A DNA stretch of 64,000 nt from Candidatus Acidiferrales bacterium (GCA_050747245.1 JBOGNO010000006.1:26005-90004); one strand, 5' to 3'. Numbered from the stretch's first letter, positions 15,241-64,000 are shown. The notes: a model not told the origin generated them from the sequence alone. Translations and numbers: made by a program.

Positions 15241-15957
15241 CTAGATGGAGCGCACCGGCAATTTCACGACATCGGCGACTTGGATGATTTCCTTAGTAAC
15301 AAACCCTTCCGCGTAGCGCACCCCGATCATGCGCCCATATGACCTGGCGAGGAGGCTCATCCTCTCCTCAAGTTCGTCGAGCGGCAGGTGCACTTTGCCG
15401 CGGCGCTCTCCGGGCTTTGGGTTGAACTGGGATTGATAGGCGAGAATCGCGCGGCGCCGCCGTTCGTATTGCGGCGTGATATCCACTGCAAGTGTGGGAC
15501 GGACGTCGGCGTAACTCGCGGCGTAGAGGAGTTTGAACGGACGGAAGGCCTGGCCAGCAATCGGCAACTGCTTCAGCCCAGCCAGGAAACAACCTTCGTA
15601 AGCAAGGCGCGCCGCATTGTAATGGTCGGGGTGGCGGCCTTCCCAGTAAGGAAGGATAACCGTGTGCGGCTGCCAGGCGCGAATCTTGCGCGCCAGCGCC
15701 AGCTTATTTTCCGCACTCGCCTCGACGTCGGCATCCGGCAATCCCAGATTTTCGCGGAGGGATACGCCCAGTATGCGCGCGGCTTTGGCAGCTTCGCGCA
15801 TTCGGATTTCCGGAGTGCCTCGGGTGCCCATCTCTCCACGCGTCAGGTCGAGAATCCCTACGCGGTAGCCCAACCGCGACATTTTCAGCAGGGTACCACC
15901 GGAGGTGAGCTCCGCGTCGTCGGGATGCGCAGCAATCGCCAGCAAATCGAGCTTCAT
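15241..15957 (-). CDS. PIG-L/LmbE family deacetylase (BshB1-like)
   Basis: LAIAAHPDDAELTSGGT...LTRGEMGTRG...HPDH are family motifs. Confidence 0.75.
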   Translation of the reverse strand: MKLDLLAIAAHPDDAELTSGGTLLKMSRLGYRVGILDLTRGEMGTRGTPEIRMREAAKAARILGVSLRENLGLPDADVEASAENKLALARKIRAWQPHTVILPYWEGRHPDHYNAARLAYEGCFLAGLKQLPIAGQAFRPFKLLYAASYADVRPTLAVDITPQYERRRRAILAYQSQFNPKPGERRGKVHLPLDELEERMSLLARSYGRMIGVRYAEGFVTKEIIQVADVVKLPVRSI

Positions 15958-18829: not shown

Positions 18830-18973
18830 GATGATAGTTTTCCACAGGAGTGTTACATGCGCGTGAAGCCGGCATGACAGGCCGGAAACGATTACGAATT
18901 GGTCACAGCGTTGCGCACGATTTTCCCGCGGCAAGTGAACGAATTTCTCATTTTGTGCAAGAATTCGCACGGA

Positions 18974-20158
18974 ATGCCGAGGATCGAGTTCGTTTTCTTT
19001 GACGCCGGGGGAGGGCATCGCGCCGCTGCCACGGCGCTACAATCAGTCATCAGTGCGCAGGGCCGTCCATGGGAAATTCAACTGCTCAATCTTCAGGAAC
19101 TGTTGGATTCAATTGATCCTGTTCGCAAGCTGACGGGGATTCGAGTTCAGGATGTGTACAACCAGATGCTGAGGCGCGGCTGGACGCTGGGGAGCGCCAG
19201 CGTTCTGCGTGTTTTGCACGCTGCCATTCGCGTGGCGCACGAAGCGATGGTGAGGAGGCTGGAAACTTACTGGAAGGAATCGCGCCCGGATATGGCTGTG
19301 TCTCTAGTGCCGAATTTCAATCGCGCGCTGCGAGAAAGCTTTGCGCGCGCATTTCCTTCGCGGCCGTTCGTCACCATCCTCACAGACCTTGCTGACTATC
19401 CACCGCATTTCTGGATCGAGCGTGAAGAGCAGTACTTCATTTGTGGCTCACCGCGAGCGGTTGAACAGGCGCGCGCGATAGGCCACAGGGCGTCGCGCGT
19501 CTTTCAAACGTCGGGGATGATTTTGAATCCCGCATTCTATGAAGACGTACGGCTGGATCGCGCGGCGGAGCGGAACAAGTTGGGATTGGATGCCGATAGG
19601 CGCACCGGGCTGTTGCTATTCGGGGGACACGGATCGAACGTGATGTTGGAAATTGCCCGCCGGCTGGATCGCTCCGGGCTGGATATTCAGCTGATTTTGA
19701 TTTGCGGGAAGAATGATGGCCTGTTTCGGGCTCTACGAGCACAAGAGAGCGGGATGCCGCGATTCGTAGAAGGATTTACGACGCAGATTCCCTTTTACAT
19801 GCGACTTTCGGATTTTTTCATCGGGAAGCCCGGTCCGGGAAGTGTTTCGGAAGCGGTGACAATGGGCCTGCCCGTGGTGGTGGAATGCAACGCGGCCACG
19901 CTCCCGCAGGAGCGTTACAACGCGGCCTGGATCCGGGAAAATGGCGCCGGGATCGTCACGCGGAATTTTCGTGAGGTAGCTTCGGCCGTAAGGCAATTGC
20001 TTGAGCCGCAAAATTTTGAGGAACTTCGTCGAAATGCGCGGGCGTTGCAAAGCCGCGCTGTATTCGAAATTCCCGACATACTGGCGAGCTGCTCTGAGGA
20101 AGCACCAACTGAATCGGCGTGGGCAAAAAAGGCAGGCTCCACGGAGCCTGCCCTTTGA
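18974..20158 (+). CDS. MGDG-synthase-like glycosyltransferase (GT28 family, diacylglycerol glycosyltransferase-like)
   Basis: IEFVFFDAGGGHRAAATAL matches the N-terminal motif of MGDG synthase / UgtP-like GT28 enzymes. The C-terminal half has GKPGPGSVSEA...GLPVV. Confidence 0.65.
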   Translation: MPRIEFVFFDAGGGHRAAATALQSVISAQGRPWEIQLLNLQELLDSIDPVRKLTGIRVQDVYNQMLRRGWTLGSASVLRVLHAAIRVAHEAMVRRLETYWKESRPDMAVSLVPNFNRALRESFARAFPSRPFVTILTDLADYPPHFWIEREEQYFICGSPRAVEQARAIGHRASRVFQTSGMILNPAFYEDVRLDRAAERNKLGLDADRRTGLLLFGGHGSNVMLEIARRLDRSGLDIQLILICGKNDGLFRALRAQESGMPRFVEGFTTQIPFYMRLSDFFIGKPGPGSVSEAVTMGLPVVVECNAATLPQERYNAAWIRENGAGIVTRNFREVASAVRQLLEPQNFEELRRNARALQSRAVFEIPDILASCSEEAPTESAWAKKAGSTEPAL

Positions 20159-51219: not shown

Positions 51220-52107
51220 ATGCATGCCAGACAGGTTGCGCTTTGGATAATTCTTTTCTCGCTGGCCTCCGGTTCGCTCGGAGCGGGTCAAGAAGTCAAA
51301 TCCTCGGGCCGGCCCGGGGCGCCCAAGCTACTGAATATCGTGCACGAGAGGCTTAAACCCGGGCAGGAAGGCGCATACGCAGCCCTTCTAGCGGAAATCA
51401 CTCGTGACTATAATGGGGTCAAGGACCCGGTCAATTGGCTCGAATTCTCCTCCATCAGCGGCCCTTCGGAAAGTTTTAGCCTGAATTTTCTCGATTCATT
51501 CGCACAGGGCGAGGAGTTTGGCTCCGCGTTGAACGCGTGGATATCGGCTCATCCCGGGCTTCTCAGATCGCAGAGCCTTCTTCTGAGCTTCACGACCGAG
51601 GTGACGAATCAGTTCGTGGTTCGTCGCGATGACTTGGGATACCGCGTGGACAACATTGACTTTTCAAAATCGCGCCTGCTGCGCGTGACGGTTTTCCGTG
51701 TTCGCGCCGGCCACCAAAATGAGTTTATCGAAGCGGCCAAAATGTTGAAAGAGTCCTTTGAGAAGGCCCACTCCGGGGATGCCTGGGTAGTCTATGAATT
51801 GAATTCGGGCGCGCCGGGACCGGAATTCATCATCCTTGAGCCCATGCAGTCGTTGAAGGAGGCGGATGATTCATTTGCCAGGGGCACATCCTTGCAGGAG
51901 GGAAGGGACATGGAGGTTACGCCCGAGCTTCGACAGATCGCGCGTGAAGCATTCATCTCGGTTGAAAGCACGCTTTATGTCGTGAACGCGCCTCAGTCGC
52001 ATGTGTCCAAGGAGTTCGCGGCCGGAGATCCAGACTTTTGGACACCGGCAACGCGACCAGCAGCCCGCGCCCGCAAAAAGCCCGCAGGTTCTAGAAGAGC
52101 CCCGTAG
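51220..52107 (+). CDS. secreted hypothetical protein, internally duplicated (paralog of 16442..17395)
   Basis: It has a signal peptide (MHARQVALWIILFSLASGSLGAGQ) and shares motifs with the 16442 protein. See the finding at 16442. Confidence 0.6.
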   Translation: MHARQVALWIILFSLASGSLGAGQEVKSSGRPGAPKLLNIVHERLKPGQEGAYAALLAEITRDYNGVKDPVNWLEFSSISGPSESFSLNFLDSFAQGEEFGSALNAWISAHPGLLRSQSLLLSFTTEVTNQFVVRRDDLGYRVDNIDFSKSRLLRVTVFRVRAGHQNEFIEAAKMLKESFEKAHSGDAWVVYELNSGAPGPEFIILEPMQSLKEADDSFARGTSLQEGRDMEVTPELRQIAREAFISVESTLYVVNAPQSHVSKEFAAGDPDFWTPATRPAARARKKPAGSRRAP

Positions 52108-52133
52108 TTCGAGCGAAATGCTAAACTGCCTCT

Positions 52134-52805
52134 GTGACCAAACAATTGATACACGAAGTTCTTCCAGTGGGGATGCTGCAGTGCAATTGTTCGATTCTCG
52201 GAGATCCCGAGACGCGCGAAGCCATCGTGCTCGACCCCGGCGATGAAGTGGAGCGCATCGCAGCGGTTTTGAAGCGGCACAATTTGAAAGTCATGGCTAT
52301 CGTGAGCACGCACACGCACATTGACCACGTGGGCGGGCTCGCGAAGCTGCACCGGCTCACCGGAGCGCCGGTCTTCATCCACGAAGATGATCTCGAGCTC
52401 TATCGTGCGCTCGATACGCAGGCGCAGTGGCTGGGCGTGCCACCCCCAGAAAAAACTGAGCTTGCCGATTTCCTCCGCGAAGGCGACAGCGTGCGCTGGG
52501 GAGGATACACGGCAAACGTGTTGCACACGCCGGGTCACACGCCCGGGAGCATTTCACTGTATCTGCCGAACGCCGCCGGTGCGGCAGCACCAGGGAAGGG
52601 AAGTGCGGCGTGGCTCTTCGCCGGGGACACGCTTTTTGCCGGCAGCATCGGGCGCACGGATTTGTGGGGAGGGTCGTTCCCGGATATCATTCGCTCAATC
52701 CAAGGGAAACTGCTTGTTCTTCCCGATGAGACGATCGTGTTTCCTGGGCACGGGCCTGCTTCGACCATCGGGAGCGAGCGCGCCTCGAATCCATTCCTCA
52801 GGTAG
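52134..52805 (+). CDS. MBL-fold metallo-hydrolase (glyoxalase II-like)
   Basis: THTHIDHVGG...HTPGHTPGS...GDTLF are the metal-binding motifs. Confidence 0.8.
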   Translation: MTKQLIHEVLPVGMLQCNCSILGDPETREAIVLDPGDEVERIAAVLKRHNLKVMAIVSTHTHIDHVGGLAKLHRLTGAPVFIHEDDLELYRALDTQAQWLGVPPPEKTELADFLREGDSVRWGGYTANVLHTPGHTPGSISLYLPNAAGAAAPGKGSAAWLFAGDTLFAGSIGRTDLWGGSFPDIIRSIQGKLLVLPDETIVFPGHGPASTIGSERASNPFLR

Positions 52806-52874
52806 CCTCTCGATTTTCCGCACCAAGACCGAAGAACTTATGTTCGTTAAAGAAAATTCGCGAATTTCCGAGGG

Positions 52875-53477
52875 CTACCGGCCGCCGGAGAGATATTTCG
52901 GCGGCACACTGTGCGCGTCGTCTTCGCCTTCCCAGTAAATCGTCATAATCCACCAGCGTTTGCCATCGTTGAATAGTTGAAAACTGTTGATGCCGCGCTC
53001 GAAGGGCTTTTCGCCCGCGGCGTGGCGCGATTCGTACGTGCTCCAGACGTGCGCGATCAAGTCCCATGACTCGGTGCGGTTGGCGACGGAATTTTCGAAG
53101 AAGCCCTGCTTCGTAAAATAGTCCTGCGCCAACTTCGCATATTCGTCCACGGTGACGCCGCGCGCTCCGATTGCTCCACTGGGAGCGCGGCCGCTGGAAA
53201 TCAGGCGCGCGCCGGAATAGAAGAGAGATCGAAAGCGATTCCAATCGCGCGGACCGGCTGGCCCCGAAATGCAGTCATAAACTGCGGCAAGAATGTGTTC
53301 GGGCGTGTCCATATCCTGCGGACGAGCCTGTGGCGTGGGGGCTGGCGCTGGCTGCGTCGAGGCGGGAGACTGATCGGAAGTTTTCGGCTGCGGCTTCTGC
53401 TCCTGGCCCGATGCAGCAAAAGGCATCGCAGTGAACAGGCAGCAAATCATTGTGACCCTGCAAAATTGTGCGTTCAT
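52875..53477 (-). CDS. hypothetical secreted protein (NTF2-like fold suspected)
   Basis: A signal peptide is followed by a Pro/Gln-rich linker. The C-terminal roughly 120 aa resemble SnoaL/DUF4440-like proteins only weakly. Confidence 0.4.
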   Translation of the reverse strand: MNAQFCRVTMICCLFTAMPFAASGQEQKPQPKTSDQSPASTQPAPAPTPQARPQDMDTPEHILAAVYDCISGPAGPRDWNRFRSLFYSGARLISSGRAPSGAIGARGVTVDEYAKLAQDYFTKQGFFENSVANRTESWDLIAHVWSTYESRHAAGEKPFERGINSFQLFNDGKRWWIMTIYWEGEDDAHSVPPKYLSGGR

Positions 53478-53578
53478 ATTGGCTCCAAGTCAGACGGCCG
53501 TAGGATTGGGAGATCACCCGCCACAGCATATAGACGCGAGCAAAGTGAAAAGGTCGTGCGGCGCACACGTTTCAAACT

Positions 53579-53869
53579 CTAAGTGAGCGGAAATTGCTTC
53601 TGCGAGCCCTTCCCTTCGCGCTCGGCGCGCAACTGTTCCATCACCGATTGAATCAATTCCTTCGCGCCGCGGAGTTCGCGGGTGATGAGCTGAATATCCA
53701 TGACCGGAATTTCTGGATCGCGCTGGCTGTGGCAGTATACTCCGTGCTGCCCGACGAGAATCATGGCGTTGGTGACCAGGTCGAGGGTGACGGCGAGTTT
53801 GCCGCGATGCGCGCCCATCATGGTCGCGTAGTGCTCGAGCTCCGCCTTGTAATCTTCAAATGCCGACAT
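53579..53869 (-). CDS. hypothetical protein
   Basis: The approximately 96 aa ORF has no recognisable domain, and its coding status is uncertain. Confidence 0.3.
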   Translation of the reverse strand: MSAFEDYKAELEHYATMMGAHRGKLAVTLDLVTNAMILVGQHGVYCHSQRDPEIPVMDIQLITRELRGAKELIQSVMEQLRAEREGKGSQKQFPLT

Positions 53870-53960
53870 TAAGTTCCTCCTCACACATCATACGCGCAGC
53901 GGGGCCAGCGAAGCGTTCTTGTGTATCATGGACGAGGGAGTAGCGGGAGAGAACAGGGCG

Positions 53961-55178
53961 ATGGTCTGGTCGGAGACATGGAGCCTGGCGCTGCAATCGC
54001 TGCGCGCGCACAAGATGCGCGCAATGCTGGCGATGCTGAGCGTCGTGATCGGCAGCGCGTGCATCGTGCTGGTGGTCACCGTAGCCCTTGCGGGAAGACG
54101 TTACGTGCTCTCGCAAATCGAAGCAGTGGGCTCCAATATCGTTTTTGCAGACTTGGTGGAATCGTCGGCGGCGCAGAGCACCACGCTTTCGGATTATATC
54201 TCGCTCGATGACCTCGCGGCCGTGCGCGAAAACGTTCCGCGAGCGATCGAGGTAGCTGGAACGCGCAACATGCCCATGACCGTGGTAGCCGGCGGCAATG
54301 CCTGGCCCGTGAGTCTGGTTGGCGCTACGCCGGGCTTTCAGAAAATCCGCAACCTGGTCATCGTGAGCGGGCGTTACCTCGATGACGGCGACTTCTTGAC
54401 GCGCAGCAAGGTGTGCGTGGTGAGCGAGCACTTGGCTGCATTGGCGTTTCCGCATGAGTCTGCCCTCGGCCATGATCTCCACGTGGGCGAGCTGAGTTTC
54501 AGCGTCGTGGGAATTTTTCGCGAGCGCGTGGCGACGTTTGGCCAGTCGGAAATTTCCCTGGATTCCGTGATCATTCCATTTCCGCTCTTCCGGTATTACA
54601 CCGGAGATGAATTCATCGAGACGTTTTACGCGCAGGCAGCTACGCCCGCGGACGTGCCCGTGGTGACGAGCGAGGTGGCGGAAATTCTGAAGGGCCGCCA
54701 TCGCCCGCAGGCGGAGTACAACGTGCAAAACCTTATCGCCATCCTGGCCGCGACGCGGCGCATCTCTCTAGCCATGACCGCGGTGCTGCTGCTCTTGGCG
54801 CTGACGGCGCTCGTCGTGAGCGGCGTGGGTATCATGAACATCATGCTCGCGAGCGTAACGGAGCGGACCATGGAGATCGGCATTCGCAAGGCCATCGGCG
54901 CGAGGCGGCGTGAAATTCTGGCGCAGTTTTTGCTTGAAGGAACGCTCATAAGCGCTGCCGGAGCGCTTATCGGCATCGGCGTGGCCGTGTTTCTGCCGGT
55001 TTCGATTCGCGCCTTGATGCGGCTCCTTCCCGTGCCCGGAGACATCACCGTTCCGATCTCGTGGCTTTCGGTGGTGCTGGCCTTTGTAGTATCCTGCGTT
55101 TCGGGCATATTATTCGGCTACCTTCCGGCAAGAAGGGCCGCCAGACTCGAGCCCGTAGAATCGCTACATTATGAATAG
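53961..55178 (+). CDS. ABC transporter permease, MacB-like (FtsX family), orphan
   Basis: An N-terminal TM helix, a MacB periplasmic domain, and a C-terminal FtsX 4-TM domain (GIRKAIGARRREIL) are present. No ATPase or MFP gene is adjacent. Confidence 0.75.
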   Translation: MVWSETWSLALQSLRAHKMRAMLAMLSVVIGSACIVLVVTVALAGRRYVLSQIEAVGSNIVFADLVESSAAQSTTLSDYISLDDLAAVRENVPRAIEVAGTRNMPMTVVAGGNAWPVSLVGATPGFQKIRNLVIVSGRYLDDGDFLTRSKVCVVSEHLAALAFPHESALGHDLHVGELSFSVVGIFRERVATFGQSEISLDSVIIPFPLFRYYTGDEFIETFYAQAATPADVPVVTSEVAEILKGRHRPQAEYNVQNLIAILAATRRISLAMTAVLLLLALTALVVSGVGIMNIMLASVTERTMEIGIRKAIGARRREILAQFLLEGTLISAAGALIGIGVAVFLPVSIRALMRLLPVPGDITVPISWLSVVLAFVVSCVSGILFGYLPARRAARLEPVESLHYE

Positions 55179-55269
55179 TGCCGCTTCGCAAGCTCGGCGA
55201 AGCGCAATCGGCCGTGCGCGGGCATGATATCTCCTGCGGTCTGTGCCGCGGCATCAGGAGTCCTGGAAC

Positions 55270-57192
55270 TTGTGCGGGATAGCAGGTTTCACTCGTAAAA
55301 ACTTCTCACCGCCCGCTGGCCGCATCCGCGAAGCCGGTGCGACGCTTCTCCATCGCGGTCCGGATCAGCAGGGAGAGTTCGAATCTGCGCACGTAGCCCT
55401 CGCCGCGACACGATTGAAAATCCTCGATCTCGCCGGCGGCGATCAGCCTATCTATTCCGAAGACGGGGGCACGGTTATCGTCTTTAATGGCGAAATCTAT
55501 AACCATCTCGATTTGCGCAAGGAGCTCGAATCGCTCGGCCACCGGTTTTACTCCCACTGCGATACGGAGACTGTGCTGCACGCCTTTCTCGAATGGGATA
55601 TCGAAAGTTTTTCGCGGCTGCGTGGGATGTTTGCCGCGGCTCTTTGGACGGAATCCGAGAAAAGGCTGATGCTTGTGCGCGACCGTATGGGCATAAAGCC
55701 GCTCTATATCGCGCGTCGCGGAGAAGATGTGCTTTTCGGATCCGAGCTCAAGGCGATTCTTGTTCATCCGGAGATTGAACGCCGCGTGAGCTTGGCCGGC
55801 CTTGATTGCTATCTGTCGCTCAACTACGTACCTTGCCCTTGGACGCTGATTGAGGGAATCGAGAAACTTCCTCCTGGCCAGTGGCTCGAATGGCGGGACG
55901 GGCGGATCACCACGGGCTCGTACTGGAGGCTACCCGCAGGGCCTGCGCACGATCGGACGCTCGAGGAAGCAAAGGAAGAGCTCGACGCGCTCATGAGGCA
56001 ATCCGTGCGCGAGCATTTGCTTTCGGATGTGCCTTTGGGCATGTGGCTGAGCGGTGGAATCGATTCTTCGACCATCTTGCATTACGCCGCAAGTGCGTCG
56101 AGTGCGCCGCTCAAGACCTTCTCGATTTCGTTTCGCGGCCGGAGTTTCGATGAATCGAAATACATTCACGAAGTCGCCGCGCGTTATGGCACAGATCATC
56201 AGGAGCTGGACCTGAATCCAGCCGAGGATCTGGCCGGCGCGATCGAGGAATTCGCGTATTACGCCGACGAGCCATGCGCCGATGCGGGCGCTCTGCCGGT
56301 GTGGTTCCTTGCGCGCCTGAGCAAGAAATCCGTCACCGTGGCCCTCAGCGGCGAAGGCGCGGACGAGCTCTTCGGCGGCTATCTCACGTATCGCGCGAAT
56401 GTGCTGGCGGAGCGCATGCGGCATTTGCCATCGAGCTTTTTGCGAGCGGCGCGTGCTGCCGTACATCTCTGGCCGGCGTCGGATGAAAAAATCAGCACGG
56501 AATACATGCTCAAACGATTTTTCAGCGGCGCGTTGATGGATTCTGCCCGCGCCCACGTTTATTGGAACGGGACTTTTTCCGAGGAAGGGAAGCGGGCGCT
56601 GGCCGCGGGGCTCCCCGCAGCGCTCGACGGCCTGCTGGGCGAACTGCGCGATGCGGCGCGTTCGGGCGATGGCTATGCGCCGTACCTTTGGTTCGATCAG
56701 AAATACTTTCTACCTGACGACATCCTCAATAAAGTGGACCGCATGAGCATGGCGCATTCGCTCGAAATCCGTCCGCCGTTCCTGGACCATCGCATTGTGG
56801 AGTTCGCGGCATCGCTGCCTTCTTCGCTAAAGTTTCGCGGTTCGCGGCAGAAAATTATTCTAAAGGAGTTGATGAAAGATAGGCTGCCGCCTTCGATTCC
56901 GCGGCGTAAGAAAATCGGGTTTGATATTCCGGCGCACGAATGGCTCCGCGGGCCACTGCGTGCCCTGCTGCAAGACGCGCTTGCGGAGGGCGCCGCCGCG
57001 CACAACGGACTTTTTCGTCCCGCGGCCATCGAAACCTGCCTGCGCCAGCACCTCGCGCGCCGCGCCAATCTGGGCTACCACTTGTGGGGCCTGATGATAC
57101 TTTTCCTGTGGATGAAGAAATGGCGAGTGCAAACAACGCACCTCTCCGCGCCGGTTCCTCCGGTGGCGGAAAGCGTTCTTACCTCTACCTGA
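55270..57192 (+). CDS. asparagine synthase (glutamine-hydrolysing) family amidotransferase
   Basis: A TTG start places the catalytic Cys at position 2 ((M)CGIAGF). AGGAG lies 9 nt upstream. SGGIDSS is the PP-loop. Confidence 0.75.
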   Translation: MCGIAGFTRKNFSPPAGRIREAGATLLHRGPDQQGEFESAHVALAATRLKILDLAGGDQPIYSEDGGTVIVFNGEIYNHLDLRKELESLGHRFYSHCDTETVLHAFLEWDIESFSRLRGMFAAALWTESEKRLMLVRDRMGIKPLYIARRGEDVLFGSELKAILVHPEIERRVSLAGLDCYLSLNYVPCPWTLIEGIEKLPPGQWLEWRDGRITTGSYWRLPAGPAHDRTLEEAKEELDALMRQSVREHLLSDVPLGMWLSGGIDSSTILHYAASASSAPLKTFSISFRGRSFDESKYIHEVAARYGTDHQELDLNPAEDLAGAIEEFAYYADEPCADAGALPVWFLARLSKKSVTVALSGEGADELFGGYLTYRANVLAERMRHLPSSFLRAARAAVHLWPASDEKISTEYMLKRFFSGALMDSARAHVYWNGTFSEEGKRALAAGLPAALDGLLGELRDAARSGDGYAPYLWFDQKYFLPDDILNKVDRMSMAHSLEIRPPFLDHRIVEFAASLPSSLKFRGSRQKIILKELMKDRLPPSIPRRKKIGFDIPAHEWLRGPLRALLQDALAEGAAAHNGLFRPAAIETCLRQHLARRANLGYHLWGLMILFLWMKKWRVQTTHLSAPVPPVAESVLTST

Positions 57193-59024
57193 TCGTACTG
57201 CTCTTTGCGAGCGCCGTGTATCTCGCATGCATCGTTTCTCCGCCGTCGCTGATGGACGACGTGGATGCCGTGCAGGCGCAGATCGCGCGCAATATGCTGA
57301 CGTCGGGCGATTGGACGACGGCGCGTCTCGACGGCGTCGTCTATCTTGAAAAGCCACCGCTGATTTACTGGATGATCGCGGGATCGTACAAAATCTTCGG
57401 CGTCCACGATTGGTCCGCGCGAATTCCTGTGGCGCTCACGGCCATCGCGCTGTGCCTGATCGTCGCCGCGTTCGCTGCATGGGCGTTCGGTGAGCGCGCC
57501 GGCCTGTGCGCGGGACTGTGCATGTCCACTTGCATCGGACTGTTTCTTTTTACGCGGATTCTGATCCCCGACGTCATGTTGACCCTTACCGTGGCATTGG
57601 CCATGTGGGCGTTCCTGCGCGCGTTGGAAGAAAACGAGCCTCACTCACGATTGTGGGCCTTTGTCCTGGCCGCGTGTCTCGGCGCTGGGCTGCTCCTCAA
57701 GAGTTTGATCGGGGTATTGTTTCCGTTTGCTGCGGCGCTGGTTTATCTTCTTCTCACCCGGCAATTATTTGTTGCCCGCACCTGGAAACGCCTTCGACCC
57801 TTCAGCGGCGCGGCCGTCGCACTGCTCATCGCCGCGCCCTGGCATGTGCTCGCCACACTGCGCAATCCGCCGTACTTCGCATGGACACTTCACAGCGGCC
57901 CTGGCGAATATCACGGCTTCCTGTGGTTTTTCTTTATCAACGAGCAATTGCTGCGCTTTCTGAATCTCCGCTATCCGCACGATTACAACACCGTCCCGCG
58001 GCTTTATTTCTGGCTTTTTCATCTCCTGTGGCTGTTTCCGTGGAGCGTGTATCTCCCGGCGGTCGCGAAACTCTCCTTCAAGCCTGCCGATCGCGCCGGC
58101 CGCGCGCGGCTTCTGGCGCTCTGCTGGATTGGCTTTGTTCTGTTGTTCTTCACCTTCTCAACGACTCAGGAATACTATTCGATGCCGTGCTATCCGGCGT
58201 TTGCGCTGTTGCTGGGTTCGGCGATGGCCGCCGAGGGGAAATGGATCGGCCGCGGAACACGCGTCCTTTGCGCCATCTCCGCTTGTGTCTCGATCGTGTT
58301 GCTCGGGATTTTCTTCATGGTTCGTCACATTCCCGCACCGGGAGACATTTCGTCCGCGCTTTCGCATCATCCGGGCGCTTACACGCTTTCGCTCGGACAC
58401 ATGGAGGACCTCACTTTTCAATCCTTCGCCTATCTCCGCGTTCCATTAGCCGCCGCGGGGATTGCGTTCCTCCTCGGAGCCCTGGGAACTCTGCTCTGGC
58501 GTGGGCGGCGTGCCATTCTGGCAGCCGCGTTGATCATGGTGCTCTTCTTTCAAGCCACGCGTCTCGCCATGGTGGTATTCGACCCGTACATGTCGTCGCG
58601 TCCGCTGGGCGAAGCCCTGCTGCGCGCGCCCGCAGGCAAACTCATCGTCGACCATCATTACTACACGTATTCCTCCGTATTTTTCTATGCGGATTGCACG
58701 GCGCTACTCTTGAACGGACGTTTCAACACCTTCGCGTACGGCGCGTATGCGCCGGGAGTTCCTCCCGTCTTCATCAGCGACGGGGATTTTGCGAATCTTT
58801 GGCGACAGCCGCAACGCTGGTACATGGTTGCCGATCGCTCTGCCATTCCGCATTTTGAGACCCTCGTGGGAGCCTCCAGCCTGAATGTGGTCCTTGAGAG
58901 TGGCGGGAAAGTCTTGCTCACTAATCTGCCGTTGTCCGTGACCACCATGCAGCAACCGCCGTTTGTGCATAGAGGCGCTGTGTTCCTCGCCGATGTTTCG
59001 CCGGAGTTCCGTGCCGCTCGCTGA
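57120..59024 (+). CDS. GT39/ArnT-like (PMT_2) polyprenyl-phosphate-sugar-dependent glycosyltransferase
   Basis: The multi-TM protein has a periplasmic loop motif (DDVDAVQAQIARNM...YLEKPPLIYW) characteristic of the ArnT/PMT family. The chosen start overlaps the asnB-like end by 73 nt and is uncertain. Confidence 0.65.
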   Translation: MASANNAPLRAGSSGGGKRSYLYLIVLLFASAVYLACIVSPPSLMDDVDAVQAQIARNMLTSGDWTTARLDGVVYLEKPPLIYWMIAGSYKIFGVHDWSARIPVALTAIALCLIVAAFAAWAFGERAGLCAGLCMSTCIGLFLFTRILIPDVMLTLTVALAMWAFLRALEENEPHSRLWAFVLAACLGAGLLLKSLIGVLFPFAAALVYLLLTRQLFVARTWKRLRPFSGAAVALLIAAPWHVLATLRNPPYFAWTLHSGPGEYHGFLWFFFINEQLLRFLNLRYPHDYNTVPRLYFWLFHLLWLFPWSVYLPAVAKLSFKPADRAGRARLLALCWIGFVLLFFTFSTTQEYYSMPCYPAFALLLGSAMAAEGKWIGRGTRVLCAISACVSIVLLGIFFMVRHIPAPGDISSALSHHPGAYTLSLGHMEDLTFQSFAYLRVPLAAAGIAFLLGALGTLLWRGRRAILAAALIMVLFFQATRLAMVVFDPYMSSRPLGEALLRAPAGKLIVDHHYYTYSSVFFYADCTALLLNGRFNTFAYGAYAPGVPPVFISDGDFANLWRQPQRWYMVADRSAIPHFETLVGASSLNVVLESGGKVLLTNLPLSVTTMQQPPFVHRGAVFLADVSPEFRAAR

Positions 59025-60090
59025 TTCTCAAATTCCGCTCGCCGTCGTGCCATCCCAGCACCCGCTGCGCCGTCTCGTGCTGGCGATTCTCCGGATAGCC
59101 ATCGGCGCGGGGCTTCTGGTCTGGCTGGCGAAATCCGGGATCATCGATTTCCGCGAACTTTCAAAACTCTTCACGGCATGGCCCATCACCCTGGCCGCTG
59201 TGGCGTTGCTGCTATTCGATATCGCTTTCATGTCCTTGCGGCTCAGGTGGCTATTTCGCGTCCAGGATCTGCAGCTTTCGTTCGGGGATTCCGCGAAGCT
59301 GACGCTCATCAGTTTCTTCTTCGGGACGTTCTTGCCCGGAGCGGCGGGCGGCGACATCGCGAAAATCTTTTATGCCGTGCGCGGCAACGCGTCCCGGCGC
59401 ACGGAAATCATCACAGTCGCGCTCCTGGATCGTGCGTTTGGGCTGTTTTCCCTGCTCCTATTGCCGCTGATTTTCGCGCCGATGTTTCTGGACCTTCTTC
59501 GAGCCGTACCCGCGCTGCGCATTTTGCTATACCTAGTTGCGTGGCTTGCGCTCGCCATTTTGCTCGCCTTTTTTTTGTGTCTTTCGAATCGCCAGTCGGT
59601 GAAAAGCTTGCTCCACTACCTGTTGGGCATTATTCCGTGGAGGGCGCAGTCGGACCGAATGATGGAGACCATTCGCGCCTACCGGCGTTTTCCGGGAGTT
59701 CTTTTTGCCGCCCTCGCGGCCTCTCTTGCCGCGAATTTATTTCTCGTGGGAGTGACCGCGCTTGCGGTGATGCTCCTCGACCCTGCGGCGCTTTCCGCCG
59801 GGCTGTGCCTGGTGATTCCACTCGGACACGTCATCAACGCCGTGCCGCTTACGCCCGGTGGCCTTGGAGTGGGCGAGGCTGCTTTCAATGCGCTCTTTAA
59901 AATCGCCGGTCTCACCGGCGGCGCCGAGGTGCTGCTTTCCTGGCGCGTATGGAATACCCTGGTCAGCTTGTTTGGGTTGGGATTCTATGTTCGAGGACTG
60001 GGCGCTCCGTTTTCCATCGCGGCTCCGAGCAGAATGGCGAATCTTCGGGCGAAACACATGCACAGAGCGAAGCCGGCCGCCTGCCGATAG
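58993..60090 (+). CDS. lysylphosphatidylglycerol-synthase-TM-like (flippase-like) membrane protein
   Basis: It has about 8 TM helices and a FFGTFLPGAAGGD motif, similar to the TIGR00374/UPF0104 family. The start is uncertain (58963 or 58993). Confidence 0.55.
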   Translation: MFRRSSVPLADSQIPLAVVPSQHPLRRLVLAILRIAIGAGLLVWLAKSGIIDFRELSKLFTAWPITLAAVALLLFDIAFMSLRLRWLFRVQDLQLSFGDSAKLTLISFFFGTFLPGAAGGDIAKIFYAVRGNASRRTEIITVALLDRAFGLFSLLLLPLIFAPMFLDLLRAVPALRILLYLVAWLALAILLAFFLCLSNRQSVKSLLHYLLGIIPWRAQSDRMMETIRAYRRFPGVLFAALAASLAANLFLVGVTALAVMLLDPAALSAGLCLVIPLGHVINAVPLTPGGLGVGEAAFNALFKIAGLTGGAEVLLSWRVWNTLVSLFGLGFYVRGLGAPFSIAAPSRMANLRAKHMHRAKPAACR

Positions 60091-60239
60091 ACGAGCGCCG
60101 CCCCAAATGAGGACGCCCGGAAAAGTTTCGCAAGCGAGCGCGTTGGCCTTCGCCGGGTGGGCTGAAAAATCCCCCTTGCGTTCGATTGGCTATGGATGAA
60201 AAAATTATCACGGTTTTCGCGGCAAGAAATCGGCGCTAA

Positions 60240-61508
<1,269 letters not shown>

Positions 61509-61531
61509 ACTAATCGAGAGAACGAGTCGGA

Positions 61532-62719
61532 TTACTTCTGCGGTGTGCTCTGCGCGATCGGCACAAGTGCACCGTCGCGGATGTAATATTGGCCATCGCG
61601 CCAGCGGATGCTTCTGCGGAAGAAGCTCACGAGCCAAACTCCAAACGCCAGCGCGTCCCATAGGGGAATCAGCACGAATTTCCTCCACATGCCGCGCTGT
61701 TTCAGGATGCCGCTGCCGATCAGCCACGTCATGGCCATGCGGAGCACCATGTACGCGCCGAAATAGCCCGCCGCCACGGGCCACACCGGCAGCATCGCCA
61801 CCGCCGCCACCGACCACGCCAGGCCCTGCGTGAAGACCAATCCCACATGCCCCCACGGGCGCATGTGCCGCATCACCACCAGCCATCGCATGCGCTTGTG
61901 TACCAGGCCGCTGAACTCTTGAAAATCGGCTACGGTCAGAACCGTGTGCGGCAGTAGCACCACTTCGTAGCCCTGCTCGGCTATAAACCGTCCGACCAGC
62001 AAATCGTCCCCCGGTTTCTCCGCAATCGAATCGTAGCCGCCGAACGCAGCGAGGTGTTTCTTCGTCGTCCCAATCGAAGTTCCGAGAGCGAATTTCACTC
62101 CATCGAGTAGCCGCGCCACCAGGATGCCCGGATAAAAATCGGAGACCATTCCAATCGTCTGCAAGCGGTCCACAAACGTCTTTTCATCCGCTGGAGCATA
62201 TAAGCACGTCACCGCGCCTACTTTGGAATTAGCCAGCGGCGCGACCATCGTGCGCAAGTAATCGCGGGCCACGCGCACGTCGCTGTCGCTGATGACCAGG
62301 GTGTCGTACGCCGCCTCGCGCACGAGTCGCGCCAGCTTGAGCACTTTGTCGTTCGCGGCTTGCCGGTCCACACCGTAAAAGACGCGAATCCGCCGCTCGG
62401 GAAAATCGCGCTGCAGTTTTTCCACCACCGGCAGCACCGGGTCCGCGCGGTCTCCCACGCAGAATAAGATTTCGTATTCCGGATAATCTTGCTGACAGAA
62501 AGTCGCGAAATTCTCGTAGCAATCAGGGTCGAGGCCGCGAATTGGCTTCAGATTGCTGACCGGCGGCGTGAAATCAGAGTGGGAAGCCTGCAACGCGGCG
62601 GAATCGCGAATGAATCTCCATGAGCTGTACAGCACCAGCAAATAGTAGACGAAGGGGAATGTCGCGACCGCGAGAATTAAATACGTCAGCAGTTTCAAAT
62701 TCCCTGCACCTTTTGCCAA
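61532..62719 (-). CDS. GT2 glycosyltransferase of the GT21/ceramide-glucosyltransferase-like subgroup (HpnI/Pgt-like)
   Basis: An N-terminal TM is followed by a catalytic domain with DSD and HKRMRW (a Q/RxxRW-like motif) and C-terminal TM helices. Confidence 0.7.
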   Translation of the reverse strand: MAKGAGNLKLLTYLILAVATFPFVYYLLVLYSSWRFIRDSAALQASHSDFTPPVSNLKPIRGLDPDCYENFATFCQQDYPEYEILFCVGDRADPVLPVVEKLQRDFPERRIRVFYGVDRQAANDKVLKLARLVREAAYDTLVISDSDVRVARDYLRTMVAPLANSKVGAVTCLYAPADEKTFVDRLQTIGMVSDFYPGILVARLLDGVKFALGTSIGTTKKHLAAFGGYDSIAEKPGDDLLVGRFIAEQGYEVVLLPHTVLTVADFQEFSGLVHKRMRWLVVMRHMRPWGHVGLVFTQGLAWSVAAVAMLPVWPVAAGYFGAYMVLRMAMTWLIGSGILKQRGMWRKFVLIPLWDALAFGVWLVSFFRRSIRWRDGQYYIRDGALVPIAQSTPQK

Positions 62720-62930
62720 ACAGACAGCGTCGAAGAATAATTTCTATGTGGGAAGCGTGCGCCGGCCGGAATCCCCCCGGGCCAGCGTTCAGAGAATACC
62801 AAATTCATTTGCCGTTGGCTTTGAAGAAGACGGGCGCGATGTTCCTGGCGCGCCGCAAAAAACTCGGAGGCGGCACGTTACGTCCGCCGCCTCCGCTTGA
62901 AAATGTGACCGAATTGAGTGCGTTATCTTC

Positions 62931-63917
62931 CTAGTGTGTGCGTTTCACATTGTCGATCGCTAGATCGTTGATCTCCTGGTCGGGAAACCATCCCAGAAAA
63001 TTGAAACCGGCGGCCGCAAACGGCAGCGGCGCTCCGTTGGCGCACAGGCTTTCGGTCACCTGCGTTCCCATACAAGTTGGGTGCAGTTGCCAGCTACCCA
63101 CCACGGTGTTTCCGGGTATGGCCTCGATGGTCATGTCCACTTCGAGATTGCCGGATTTGTCCTTCCTGAAGATGTGCGTGAACCGGTACCACCCGGATGA
63201 CGAGATGCACACCTGCGGCGGGTTCGGCGGAGTCGGATTGTGCGCGTTCGCTCCTGTCCGCTGCGAATTTGTCGAAGCCTCGGCCACAAAAAAGCCGCCG
63301 CTTGCCGGCGCACAGGAATCTGTCGCCAGGCCGGTTGCCATGTTAAAAAGGTAGTCCTGAAGGAACACTCCCTGGCTGTCGAGCAGGTCGGAATCCCAGT
63401 CGAATCGAAAGTCCTTTCCTCCGGTCTCAGCGGTCGCTGCAAATGCCGTATCCAGATAGATGTCAATCGAAGTTTGCACTCCGTCCTTGTCGAGCGGGAT
63501 TCCCGTGTCAAAATTGCCGTCAAATCCTCCAAAGGGTAGGCCCCACTCTGTGAACGGCCCGCCGCAGCTGAAGTTGTTGGCGTTCAATACTCCCGGCGCG
63601 CAGGTTCCGATGAATTGATCGTTGTTGATGTTATTCACGGGCTGCACCAGCAGCCGCGCGTAGGCGTCTCCGCTCGCTGCCGCGATTCCCGGAGCATAAT
63701 CGGTCTCCGCCGTTGATTTCGATTGCCGTATATGCAGGACTCCCACGCCATCGTCAAAGAATAAGCCTCCCTTTTCGAATCCCTCGTTATATTCATCCGG
63801 TGCCTTCCCATTGTCAAAATCCGCCAGGACCTCCGGAATCGCCGCCAGTAAACAAATCACCGCGGCAGTGAATAATCCGGCGCCCAGGCCTCTCTTCATT
63901 GACCAGATTGTTTTCAT
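62931..63917 (-). CDS. hypothetical secreted protein
   Basis: A signal peptide (MKTIWSMKRGLGAGLFTAAVICLLAAIP) is followed by Gly/Asp/Asn-rich sequence. No family is recognised. Confidence 0.5.
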   Translation of the reverse strand: MKTIWSMKRGLGAGLFTAAVICLLAAIPEVLADFDNGKAPDEYNEGFEKGGLFFDDGVGVLHIRQSKSTAETDYAPGIAAASGDAYARLLVQPVNNINNDQFIGTCAPGVLNANNFSCGGPFTEWGLPFGGFDGNFDTGIPLDKDGVQTSIDIYLDTAFAATAETGGKDFRFDWDSDLLDSQGVFLQDYLFNMATGLATDSCAPASGGFFVAEASTNSQRTGANAHNPTPPNPPQVCISSSGWYRFTHIFRKDKSGNLEVDMTIEAIPGNTVVGSWQLHPTCMGTQVTESLCANGAPLPFAAAGFNFLGWFPDQEINDLAIDNVKRTH

Positions 63918-64000
63918 CTTGATTTTTCTCCTTTCTCATTTTCGAAAGCCGCCCGAGGGATCCTGCGGTGTGAGGCTGCTACGCGTGAGCGGCTGGGCCG

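Follow-up and report, generated by a model that had tools for sequence, protein, structure and literature searches.

The stretch of DNA analysed here, referred to as the window, is 64,000 nucleotides (nt) long and comes from a metagenome-assembled genome (MAG) of a Candidatus Acidiferrales bacterium, a member of the Acidobacteriota (GCA_050747245.1 JBOGNO010000006.1:26005-90004). At 55270-62698 it carries a module of five genes built around sqdB, the gene for a UDP-sulfoquinovose synthase. The first three, all on the plus strand, encode an AsnB-family glutamine-dependent amidotransferase of 640 aa (55270..57192), an ArnT-like GT-C glycosyltransferase of 634 aa with about ten or more transmembrane (TM) segments (57120..59024), and an LPG_synthase_TM / TIGR00374 'flippase-like' membrane protein of 365 aa (58993..60090). 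These are followed on the same strand by sqdB itself (60291..61508, 405 aa) and, convergent to it on the minus strand, by a gene for a GT21 lipid glycosyltransferase of 388 aa (61532..62698), with 23 nt between the two stop codons. An earlier reading of the DNA by itself (the sequence-only reading) had proposed these five genes as a candidate locus for modifying membranes with a sulfosugar or an aminosugar, and all five were confirmed in place by open reading frame (ORF) listing and by Pfam and NCBIfam matches. The same locus is also present on contig CDHSYF010000048.1 (GCA_975256005.1), and the SqdB sequence is identical to the NCBI MAG protein. The module is a conserved acidobacterial gene set found in dozens of species, and it points to an undescribed sulfonated membrane lipid.

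The four co-directional genes had been described as overlapping at their junctions, which is correct for the first three. asnB and the GT-C gene share 73 nt if the latter starts at the ATG at 57120, and the GT-C gene overlaps the LPG_synthase_TM gene by 32 nt or 14 nt, depending on whether the ATG at 58993 or the GTG at 59011 is taken as the start of the latter. sqdB is separated from the LPG_synthase_TM gene by a gap of about 200 nt and takes no part in the overlaps. In the MAG annotation (P0241, 590 aa) the GT-C gene starts at 57252, 132 nt downstream, which would remove TM1. Homologues of this enzyme are 600-660 aa long and keep the N-terminus, including TM1 and the position of the initiating Met, and ArnT has a helix there too; the public start appears to be 132 nt too late. 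A 439-aa ORF antisense to sqdB (59985-61304, minus strand) was dismissed as spurious, being absent from the contig gene calls and of a kind typical of GC-rich DNA.

Conservation of the sqdB-linked gene set

Eighty species-representative genome loci were fetched around the closest SqdB homologues and compared by tblastn and by clustering of all ORFs. Counts were made over 81 loci and over a subset of 56 species-level loci with full flanks. Nearly all of the loci belong to Acidobacteriota, in the Terriglobales, Bryobacterales and Acidoferrales. Cultured strains were sought among the members of the SqdB sequence cluster, all of which proved to be MAG or metagenome sequences.

The GT21 gene is the most persistent neighbour of sqdB, being found in 60 of the 81 loci (45/56 with full flanks) and in several gene orders. 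The ArnT-like GT-C gene follows with 57/81 (40/56), at 56-78% identity, then the AsnB-like gene with 43/81 (30/56) and, in 40/81 (31/56), a pair of genes for small EamA proteins of four TM segments that is present neither in the window nor on its contig. These counts bear out the proposal of a linked sulfosugar and membrane-lipid locus and supply the survey it had called for, of co-occurrence of sqdB with GT21 and 'GT39' genes (the latter being the ArnT-like enzyme) across genomes. The LPG_synthase_TM gene, which had been counted as a full member of the locus, was found in only 6/81 loci (3/56); it is an accessory, lineage-restricted gene.

Linkage is kept through at least six gene orders across orders of Terriglobia, those seen including EamA-EamA-asnB-GTC-sqdB><GT21, sqdB-GTC-GT21, sqdB-GT21-GTC, sqdB-asnB-GTC-GT21 and sqdB><GT21-asnB-GTC. 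An independent gene call on a 2.3-Mb contig gave the same picture of the module. Of eleven other ORFs flanking the module, ten are without a homologue elsewhere in the set of loci, and the remaining one is the spurious ORF opposite sqdB; background synteny at this divergence is therefore essentially zero. Linkage that survives repeated rearrangement is thus good evidence of shared function.

The enzymes that would be expected to complete the synthesis of sulfoquinovosyldiacylglycerol (SQDG), SqdX (GT4) and SqdD (GT8), had been noted as missing from the vicinity of sqdB, and this observation stands. No GT4, GT8 or ArnC-type GT2 family recurs in the 80 related loci. Nor was any of these found among the window ORFs scanned by Pfam, which comprised 20 mid-sized ORFs and the seven locus proteins, the seven largest ORFs being checked for motifs only and smaller ones left unscanned. 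As far as our literature searches reach the module appears to be undescribed, and no publication was found linking sulfoquinovose or sqdB with Acidobacteria, HpnI, ArnT or undecaprenyl.

The genes lying between sqdB and the GT21 gene vary from locus to locus (e.g. L015:3446-5222, L039:11310-13122 and L057:13592-14578). A DAO-type FAD oxidoreductase is found in 16 loci, a weak Gfo/Idh/MocA-like protein in 12, and a short-chain dehydrogenase/reductase (SDR), the best match of which is HpnA, in 10; these variable accessory enzymes may tailor the sugar or the lipid. The module also occurs in MAGs assigned to Candidatus Binatus (L073) and Deferrimicrobiaceae (L074), at identities of the acidobacterial type (SqdB 79-82%, GT-C 69-73%), which suggests mis-binned acidobacterial contigs or recent transfer.

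SqdB and the sugar donor

SqdB aligns with Arabidopsis SQD1 (1qrr) at 631 bits, with 68% identity over 383 ungapped residues. It retains GGDGYCG, the NAD+ glycine motif, GTMGEYG, which contains T145, and YHLSK, which contains Y182, H183 and K186. We take T145, Y182 and K186 to be the catalytic residues of SQD1, and H183 to be specific to SQD1. Against the NCBIfam model NF041015 the protein scores 497.1, below the cutoff of 575. Because the next-best families score less than 50 bits, this miss most probably reflects a strict model and not another function. The view that a convincing UDP-sulfoquinovose synthase is present is upheld: by these comparisons SqdB can be regarded as an unambiguous SQD1 orthologue, and UDP-sulfoquinovose is taken as its product. 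The other option that had been offered, an aminosugar, is set aside, on this orthology and on the lack of any sugar aminotransferase in the module.

sqdB is also found in settings other than the module. In an Acidobacteriaceae MAG (L081:8583-19807, CAVPVE010000001.1) it lies inside a Wzx/Wzy-type polysaccharide cluster. The run there comprises genes for a Wzz/GNVR protein, SqdB, a Wzx-like Polysacc_synt protein, a polymerase-like multi-TM protein, two GT2 enzymes and a radical SAM protein, and continues with a methyltransferase, a DegT aminotransferase and Bac_transf, suggesting that this species places sulfoquinovose in a surface polysaccharide. On actinobacterial plasmids, the partners of the sqdB homologues (47% and 61% identical) are large membrane GT2 enzymes, not GT4 or GT8. 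The plasmid of Rhodococcus qingshengii (L086:9001-15945) carries sqdB with genes for a 639-aa protein weakly matching BcsB, a 624-aa GT2 resembling cellulose and chitin synthases, and an alkyl sulfatase; that of Pseudonocardia autotrophica (L085:2970-10149) has a gene for a 416-aa GT2 divergent from sqdB, with MurJ nearby. These pairs may represent further uses of UDP-sulfoquinovose outside SQDG. A Microbulbifer plasmid examined for comparison carries the canonical pair of sqdB and a GT4 gene.

The GT21 enzyme is related to HpnI

The GT21 protein matches Pfam Glyco_transf_21 at 113.6 bits (gathering score 21.7) and aligns from end to end with the human ceramide glucosyltransferase UGCG (26qf, 107 bits). 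It has TM segments at its N- and C-termini and the motifs DSD at 138, GDD at 230 and RMRW at 269-272. The last of these, which the sequence-only reading had correctly recognised in this convergent gene, is encoded at 61883..61894 (minus strand) and represents the (Q/R)xxRW signature of GT21 and of cellulose-synthase-like GT2 enzymes.

Among NCBIfam models the best match is to that of HpnI, TIGR03472, on which the window protein scores 286.6 bits, under the cutoff of 310. Five other sqdB-linked orthologues from acidobacterial loci fall in the same range, at 272-293 bits, and a true HpnI, from the hpnI-hpnJ-hpnK-hpnL operon of Mycetohabitans, reaches 452 bits. Three of the sqdB loci contain extra GT21 paralogues, and these score 319-340 bits, above the cutoff. 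A Gemmobacter protein named 'ceramide glucosyltransferase' scores 186 bits on this model and is 25% identical. In a neighbour-joining tree the sqdB-linked proteins form one clade, with the HpnI-scoring paralogues as its sister and proteobacterial HpnI outside. The clade has basic residues of its own near the D3 and RxxRW motifs, including the pair K268-R269, where the paralogues and HpnI have H or R followed by Q or E; R237 and R361 are likewise specific to it. On this evidence the enzyme would be a diverged HpnI paralogue and a full-length relative of ceramide glucosyltransferase.

An AlphaFold model of the GT21 protein, built from a 30-sequence alignment, had a mean pLDDT of 61.7, which is too poor for arguments about the pocket or the topology. 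When this low-confidence model was compared by Foldseek, cellulose-synthase-like GT2 enzymes gave TMq values of 0.5-0.6 and GtrB, ArnC and DPMS values of about 0.33, a ranking used with caution, in a PDB set that had no UGCG entries.

A fragment of a GT21 gene on plasmid pNPUN02 of Nostoc punctiforme (L082:8067-8633) is 43% identical to the window GT21, closer than proteobacterial HpnI. A PIG-L deacetylase and an RND efflux system are encoded close by. It was considered as a bridge to the module and discarded, since an IS630 transposase truncates it and it has no sqdB context.

The EamA pair and its probable hopanoid context

Fusions of EamA and GT21 were drawn from an exhaustive HMMER search over 1.8 billion representatives. 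The EamA proteins of the module are 43-55% identical to EamA pairs on four metagenome contigs, where they stand in the same order, immediately upstream of a GT21 gene. On the first (L091:583-4060) a gene for a B12-binding radical-SAM protein is followed by the two EamA genes and then by HpnI (369.9 bits). The second (L089:2-3392) has HpnJ (650.7 bits, cutoff 577.6), one EamA gene and an EamA::HpnI fusion (336 bits, cutoff 310), and the third (L090:572-3658) a gene for a YdjC (HpnK-type) protein, one EamA gene and an EamA::HpnI fusion (367.6 bits); the fourth (L093:2-1786) carries EamA, EamA and GT21. The radical-SAM protein of the first contig is assigned as HpnJ by its 67-68% identity to the HpnJ proteins of two acidobacterial loci described below, and not by its score on the HpnJ model. 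In the related loci the module's EamA proteins match ArnE at 19 bits (E ~1e-3, cutoff 92). Because their orthologues adjoin or are fused to HpnI beside HpnJ or HpnK, the pair is probably an HpnI-type partner in a hopanoid context and not a marker of an Arn system.

A number of other GT21 fusions were observed: five of GT21 to YkoP, one of a YdjC (HpnK-type) domain to GT21 and YkoP (866 aa), and one of GT21 to an M20 peptidase (P0470, P0480, P0487, P0491, P0529, P0543, P0450).

In two acidobacterial MAGs (L039:5296-18488 and L048:5266-18485) a gene for HpnJ, 49% identical to that of Mycetohabitans, directly precedes the module. The former has the order HpnJ-EamA-EamA-AsnB-SqdB, its gaps measuring about 13, -4 and 53 nt. 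After sqdB there are, on the opposite strand, genes for a weak Gfo/Idh/MocA-like protein and an FAD oxidoreductase, and then a GT21 gene of the sqdB-linked type, additional EamA genes and two GT21 paralogues; both of the extra paralogues in L039 pass the HpnI cutoff. In two further loci (L003:8622-9956 and L013:502-1836) the position directly upstream of sqdB is taken by a 444-aa ORF whose identity to HpnJ is only about 25%, over some 250 residues.

A published BLAST survey recorded 'hpnI' and hpnJ, without hpnK, in the hopanoid-producing acidobacterial subdivisions 1 and 3, and reported hpnI to be absent from the acidobacterial groups without shc (PMC5462960). A sugar with no need of de-N-acetylation would fit the missing hpnK.

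The ArnT-like, AsnB-like and LPG_synthase_TM proteins

The GT-C enzyme had been labelled ArnT-like and GT39, of which the first part is apt. Its only Pfam match is to the broad PMT_2 family (84.5 bits), some of its orthologues carrying a precomputed PF02366 match, and no PMT1 or PMT2 match was obtained. The sole solved relative found is ArnT (5ezm, 85.8 bits), which we take to be classed in CAZy GT83. 'ArnT-like GT-C enzyme' would thus be the accurate label, judged by these matches. On the ArnT equivalog model PRK13279 the protein scores 91.9, far below the cutoff of 567, and no genes of the ArnA, ArnB, ArnC or ArnD type are present in the window locus or recur in related ones. Aligned with 5ezm, it keeps E84/K85 (in YLEKPP), R270 (in FFFINEQLLRF) and Y345 (in EYYSMP) of ArnT, together with a DDVD loop after TM1. 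In ArnT these four residues bind undecaprenyl phosphate. Because the phosphate-binding residues are retained, the comparison suggests that the enzyme uses a polyprenyl-phosphate sugar in the periplasm. An AlphaFold2 model from a 30-sequence alignment reached a pLDDT of 55.1 and was too poor for use.

The AsnB-like gene has a TTG start, which gives an N-terminus of MCGIAG with the Cys2 nucleophile present, and the SGGIDS pyrophosphate loop is found at residue 261. The protein matches Pfam Asn_synthase (323 bits) and GATase_7/6, and scores 452.6 on TIGR01536, above the cutoff of 267.1. On TIGR03108, the XrtA/PEP-CTERM amidotransferase model, it scores 527.5 against a cutoff of 816.9. Its best solved relatives are the hydroxyamidotransferase 7ylz (234.6 bits) and E. 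coli AsnB (149.7 bits). These matches place it in the asparagine synthase family, an assignment that holds at the family level.

The LPG_synthase_TM protein matches Pfam PF03706 at 111.5 (gathering score 33.4) and falls just under the cutoff of TIGR00374, at 41.7 against 43.2. It shares its Pfam family with HpnL, the product of the last gene of the Burkholderiales (Mycetohabitans) hpnI-hpnJ-hpnK-hpnL operon. Orthology with HpnL was considered and rejected, as the BLASTP match covers only 48 residues and there is no match to TIGR03476, on which Mycetohabitans HpnL scores 327.7. Of the six loci that carry the LPG_synthase_TM gene, four are likewise without the EamA pair, which hints that the two replace one another as the membrane partner.

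A proposed pathway and its alternatives

There is, in our estimation, about an even chance that the module diverts UDP-sulfoquinovose into a hopanoid-type membrane glycolipid and not into classical SQDG. In the proposed pathway SqdB would make UDP-sulfoquinovose, a step that rests on its orthology with SQD1. The GT21 enzyme, present beside sqdB in 45 of the 56 full-flank loci and the best candidate for a user of this donor, would then transfer the sugar at the cytoplasmic face of the membrane to a hydroxyl group on a polyol of the membrane, for which bacteriohopanetetrol is the likeliest candidate. The sequence-only reading had already suggested the GT21 enzyme as a lipid sulfoquinovosyltransferase; as an HpnI paralogue with membrane partners of the HpnI/HpnJ/HpnK type, its likely acceptor would be a hopanoid polyol, not diacylglycerol. 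Since GT21 enzymes invert, the predicted product is a beta-linked sulfoquinovosyl hopanoid. A membrane partner may handle or translocate the glycolipid, this being the EamA half-transporter pair in most relatives and, in the window, the LPG_synthase_TM protein of the HpnL/MprF/AglD superfamily. The transfer and translocation steps are inferred from gene neighbourhood, fusions and family chemistry. Finally, the conserved and translationally coupled AsnB-like and ArnT-like enzymes would most likely have a tailoring role, either on the product or on its target in the envelope, and the ArnT-like enzyme would act in the periplasm with a polyprenyl-phosphate sugar donor. In its fullest form, which we advance more tentatively and at somewhat less than an even chance, Terriglobia would make a beta-sulfoquinovosyl bacteriohopanepolyol by way of an HpnI paralogue whose donor has been switched to UDP-sulfoquinovose, and the ArnT-like/AsnB-like pair would perform a further, undescribed step in the envelope.

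Several observations weigh against a hopanoid product. The link to a hopanoid acceptor rests on homology and neighbourhood, and we know of no sulfur-containing biohopanoid; literature searches turned up none. The GT21 protein does not reach the HpnI cutoff, and its identity to proteobacterial HpnI is only about 32%. The cassettes of EamA and HpnI lie on short soil metagenome contigs to which no taxonomy is assigned, and hpnJ stands beside the module in only two of 80 loci, in similar genomes that both lack the GT-C gene within 10 kb. The window has no DxDDTA motif of squalene-hopene cyclase (SHC) in any frame and no homologue of HpnJ, HpnK or HpnL, HpnH and HpnG not having been searched for. 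The correlation with hopanoid producers is confounded by phylogeny. The pathway also leaves unexplained the ArnT-like enzyme, which is tightly conserved together with its polyprenyl-phosphate-binding residues, and the AsnB-like protein as well; the module encodes no conventional synthase for a polyprenyl-phosphate sugar donor that the GT-C enzyme could use.

This last gap keeps alive the main rival, a periplasmic system of three components resembling Arn, Rgt or Gtr, in which polyprenyl phosphate would receive sulfoquinovose from the GT21 enzyme and be flipped by the EamA pair (ArnE/F-like) or the LPG_synthase_TM protein (AglD/MprF-like), after which the GT-C enzyme would deliver the sugar to lipopolysaccharide (LPS), lipid A, a protein or another periplasmic target. 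The sequence-only reading had offered a polyprenyl-phosphate route of this kind, ending at the ArnT-like transferase. In its favour, the GT-C gene accompanies sqdB almost as often as the GT21 gene does (40/56), forms co-directional runs with both and encodes the four retained ArnT residues, and the module has one nucleotide-sugar enzyme and one cytoplasmic glycosyltransferase only. Rhizobium RgtE, with RgtA-D, reportedly adds the anionic sugar galacturonic acid to LPS by a comparable route, and the sqdB gene in the Wzx/Wzy cluster makes it probable that sulfoquinovose occurs in surface glycans of some Acidobacteria. The weak similarity of the EamA proteins to ArnE could be read in the same sense; against this, the orthologous pairs are fused to genuine HpnI or stand next to it, beside HpnJ or HpnK, which is not an Arn context, and this weakens the route. 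Moreover, no GT21 is known that glycosylates polyprenyl phosphate, and the module enzyme, by its sequence and in the low-confidence model, is nearer to UGCG, PcManGT and hyaluronan synthases than to GtrB, ArnC or DPMS. Several loci have sqdB, GT21 and EamA genes with no GT-C gene within 10 kb, and both donor and acceptor would have to change from the HpnI ancestor. We regard this route as rather unlikely, and lipid A as its specific target is not borne out, since the surroundings of the module show no recurring lpx or LPS-core genes.

A somewhat smaller likelihood still is given to a non-hopanoid sulfolipid made by the GT21 enzyme, the option that the sequence-only reading had put first; this would be a beta-sulfoquinovosyl diacylglycerol, ceramide or iso-diabolic acid glycerol lipid serving as a phosphate-sparing anionic lipid. 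The GT21 family includes enzymes for ceramide (UGCG) and for diacylglycerol (rhizobial Pgt), genes for SqdX and SqdD are absent from the vicinity, and the actinobacterial plasmid sqdB genes likewise pair with membrane enzymes of the GT2 clan and not with GT4 or GT8. However, it is the hopanoid branch of GT21 that is indicated by the closest relatives of the enzyme and by the accessory genes, for the EamA pair, HpnJ, the HpnL-family protein and the HpnA-like SDR; the Gemmobacter ceramide glucosyltransferase-like protein is far more distant. It is very improbable, in our view, that the genes share no pathway at all, the GT21 protein being an ordinary HpnI using UDP-N-acetylglucosamine (UDP-GlcNAc), the AsnB-like and ArnT-like proteins having an unrelated role in the envelope, and SqdB feeding an SQDG synthase encoded elsewhere. 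Such an arrangement would agree with the naming of the acidobacterial gene as 'hpnI' by BLAST in published surveys (PMC5462960), and the absence of sqdX and sqdD applies to the locus, not to whole genomes. It is at odds with a linkage that outlasts at least six gene orders whilst ten other flanking ORFs have no homologue elsewhere, with a clade of sqdB-linked GT21 proteins that stands apart from the HpnI-passing paralogues and has basic residues of its own, and with the reported absence of HpnK from these groups (PMC5462960).

Neighbouring features of the window

Upstream of the module, at 53919..55178 on the plus strand, lies a gene for a MacB/FtsX-type permease of 419 aa, which matches Pfam MacB_PCD and FtsX and has no ATPase domain. 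A homologue is found within 10 kb of sqdB, in either orientation, in 30 of the 81 loci (24/56 with full flanks); it is a frequent neighbour, and its membership of the module is uncertain. About 40 kb upstream of the module are genes for a PIG-L family deacetylase (15241-15957, minus strand) and a glycosyltransferase with a GT28-C domain (18899-20158, plus strand). An Rfam scan of 52000-64000 found nothing, and a promoter and terminator scan stayed at background level, so that no regulatory signal can be claimed.

Implications and comparison with known systems

Sulfoquinovose is among the most abundant organosulfur compounds and is usually attributed to the SQDG of phototrophs. If the proposed pathway is correct, there would be a second outlet for sulfoquinovose in dominant heterotrophic bacteria of soil and peat, changing the view of where soil sulfoquinovose comes from and of what feeds its degraders. 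Were the acceptor a hopanoid, the product would form a new class of anionic, sulfonated biohopanoids, the charge of which persists at low pH and could contribute to acid tolerance of the envelope; this would also bear on the use of hopanoids as biomarkers in peat and soil. The pathway would explain the occurrence of 'hpnI' and hpnJ without hpnK in Acidobacteria of subdivisions 1 and 3 (PMC5462960). In addition, the cassettes and fusions of EamA with HpnI make the EamA half-transporter pair a candidate for a membrane component so far overlooked in the ordinary pathway to hopanoid glucosamine and cyclitol ethers.

The module shares its first enzyme with SQDG synthesis, in which SqdB or SQD1 is followed by SqdX/SQD2 (GT4) or SqdD (GT8). 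Its partner for that enzyme is instead an inverting GT21, with no GT4 or GT8, so that a beta linkage would be expected, along with an acceptor that is probably something other than diacylglycerol. Another use of UDP-sulfoquinovose outside SQDG is the Agl3-dependent N-glycan of Sulfolobus, an archaeal, dolichol-linked oligosaccharide transferred by the oligosaccharyltransferase AglB, a system that has no transferases in common with the module. With the Arn system (PmrHFIJKLM) and with Rhizobium RgtE/RgtA-D there is a likeness in the ArnT-like GT-C enzyme, in the pair of small EamA/SMR-like proteins resembling ArnE and ArnF, and in the single nucleotide-sugar enzyme. The module differs in lacking a GT2 of the ArnC or RgtE type as well as ArnA, ArnB and ArnD, and its EamA pair is orthologous to the partners of HpnI. 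The GT21 enzyme has the architecture of UGCG, an N-terminal TM segment, a GT-A domain and C-terminal TM segments, together with the D1, D2, D3 and (Q/R)xxRW motifs; it is nevertheless a distant, bacterial relative (107 bits), and would differ in both donor and acceptor.

The HpnI-HpnK-HpnJ(-HpnL) pathway, which produces the glucosamine and the cyclitol ether of bacteriohopanetetrol, resembles the module in its GT21 enzyme, of the HpnI lineage in both, and in the EamA pair or HpnL-family protein that accompanies it; in two acidobacterial genomes, hpnJ directly adjoins the module. Unlike HpnI, the module enzyme scores under the HpnI cutoff, belongs to a clade of its own and is linked to SqdB and not to a GlcNAc route. 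The module also lacks HpnK and adds the AsnB-like and ArnT-like genes, and its predicted sugar is sulfoquinovose. The combination is one in which lipid glycosylation of the HpnI type is joined to SqdB.

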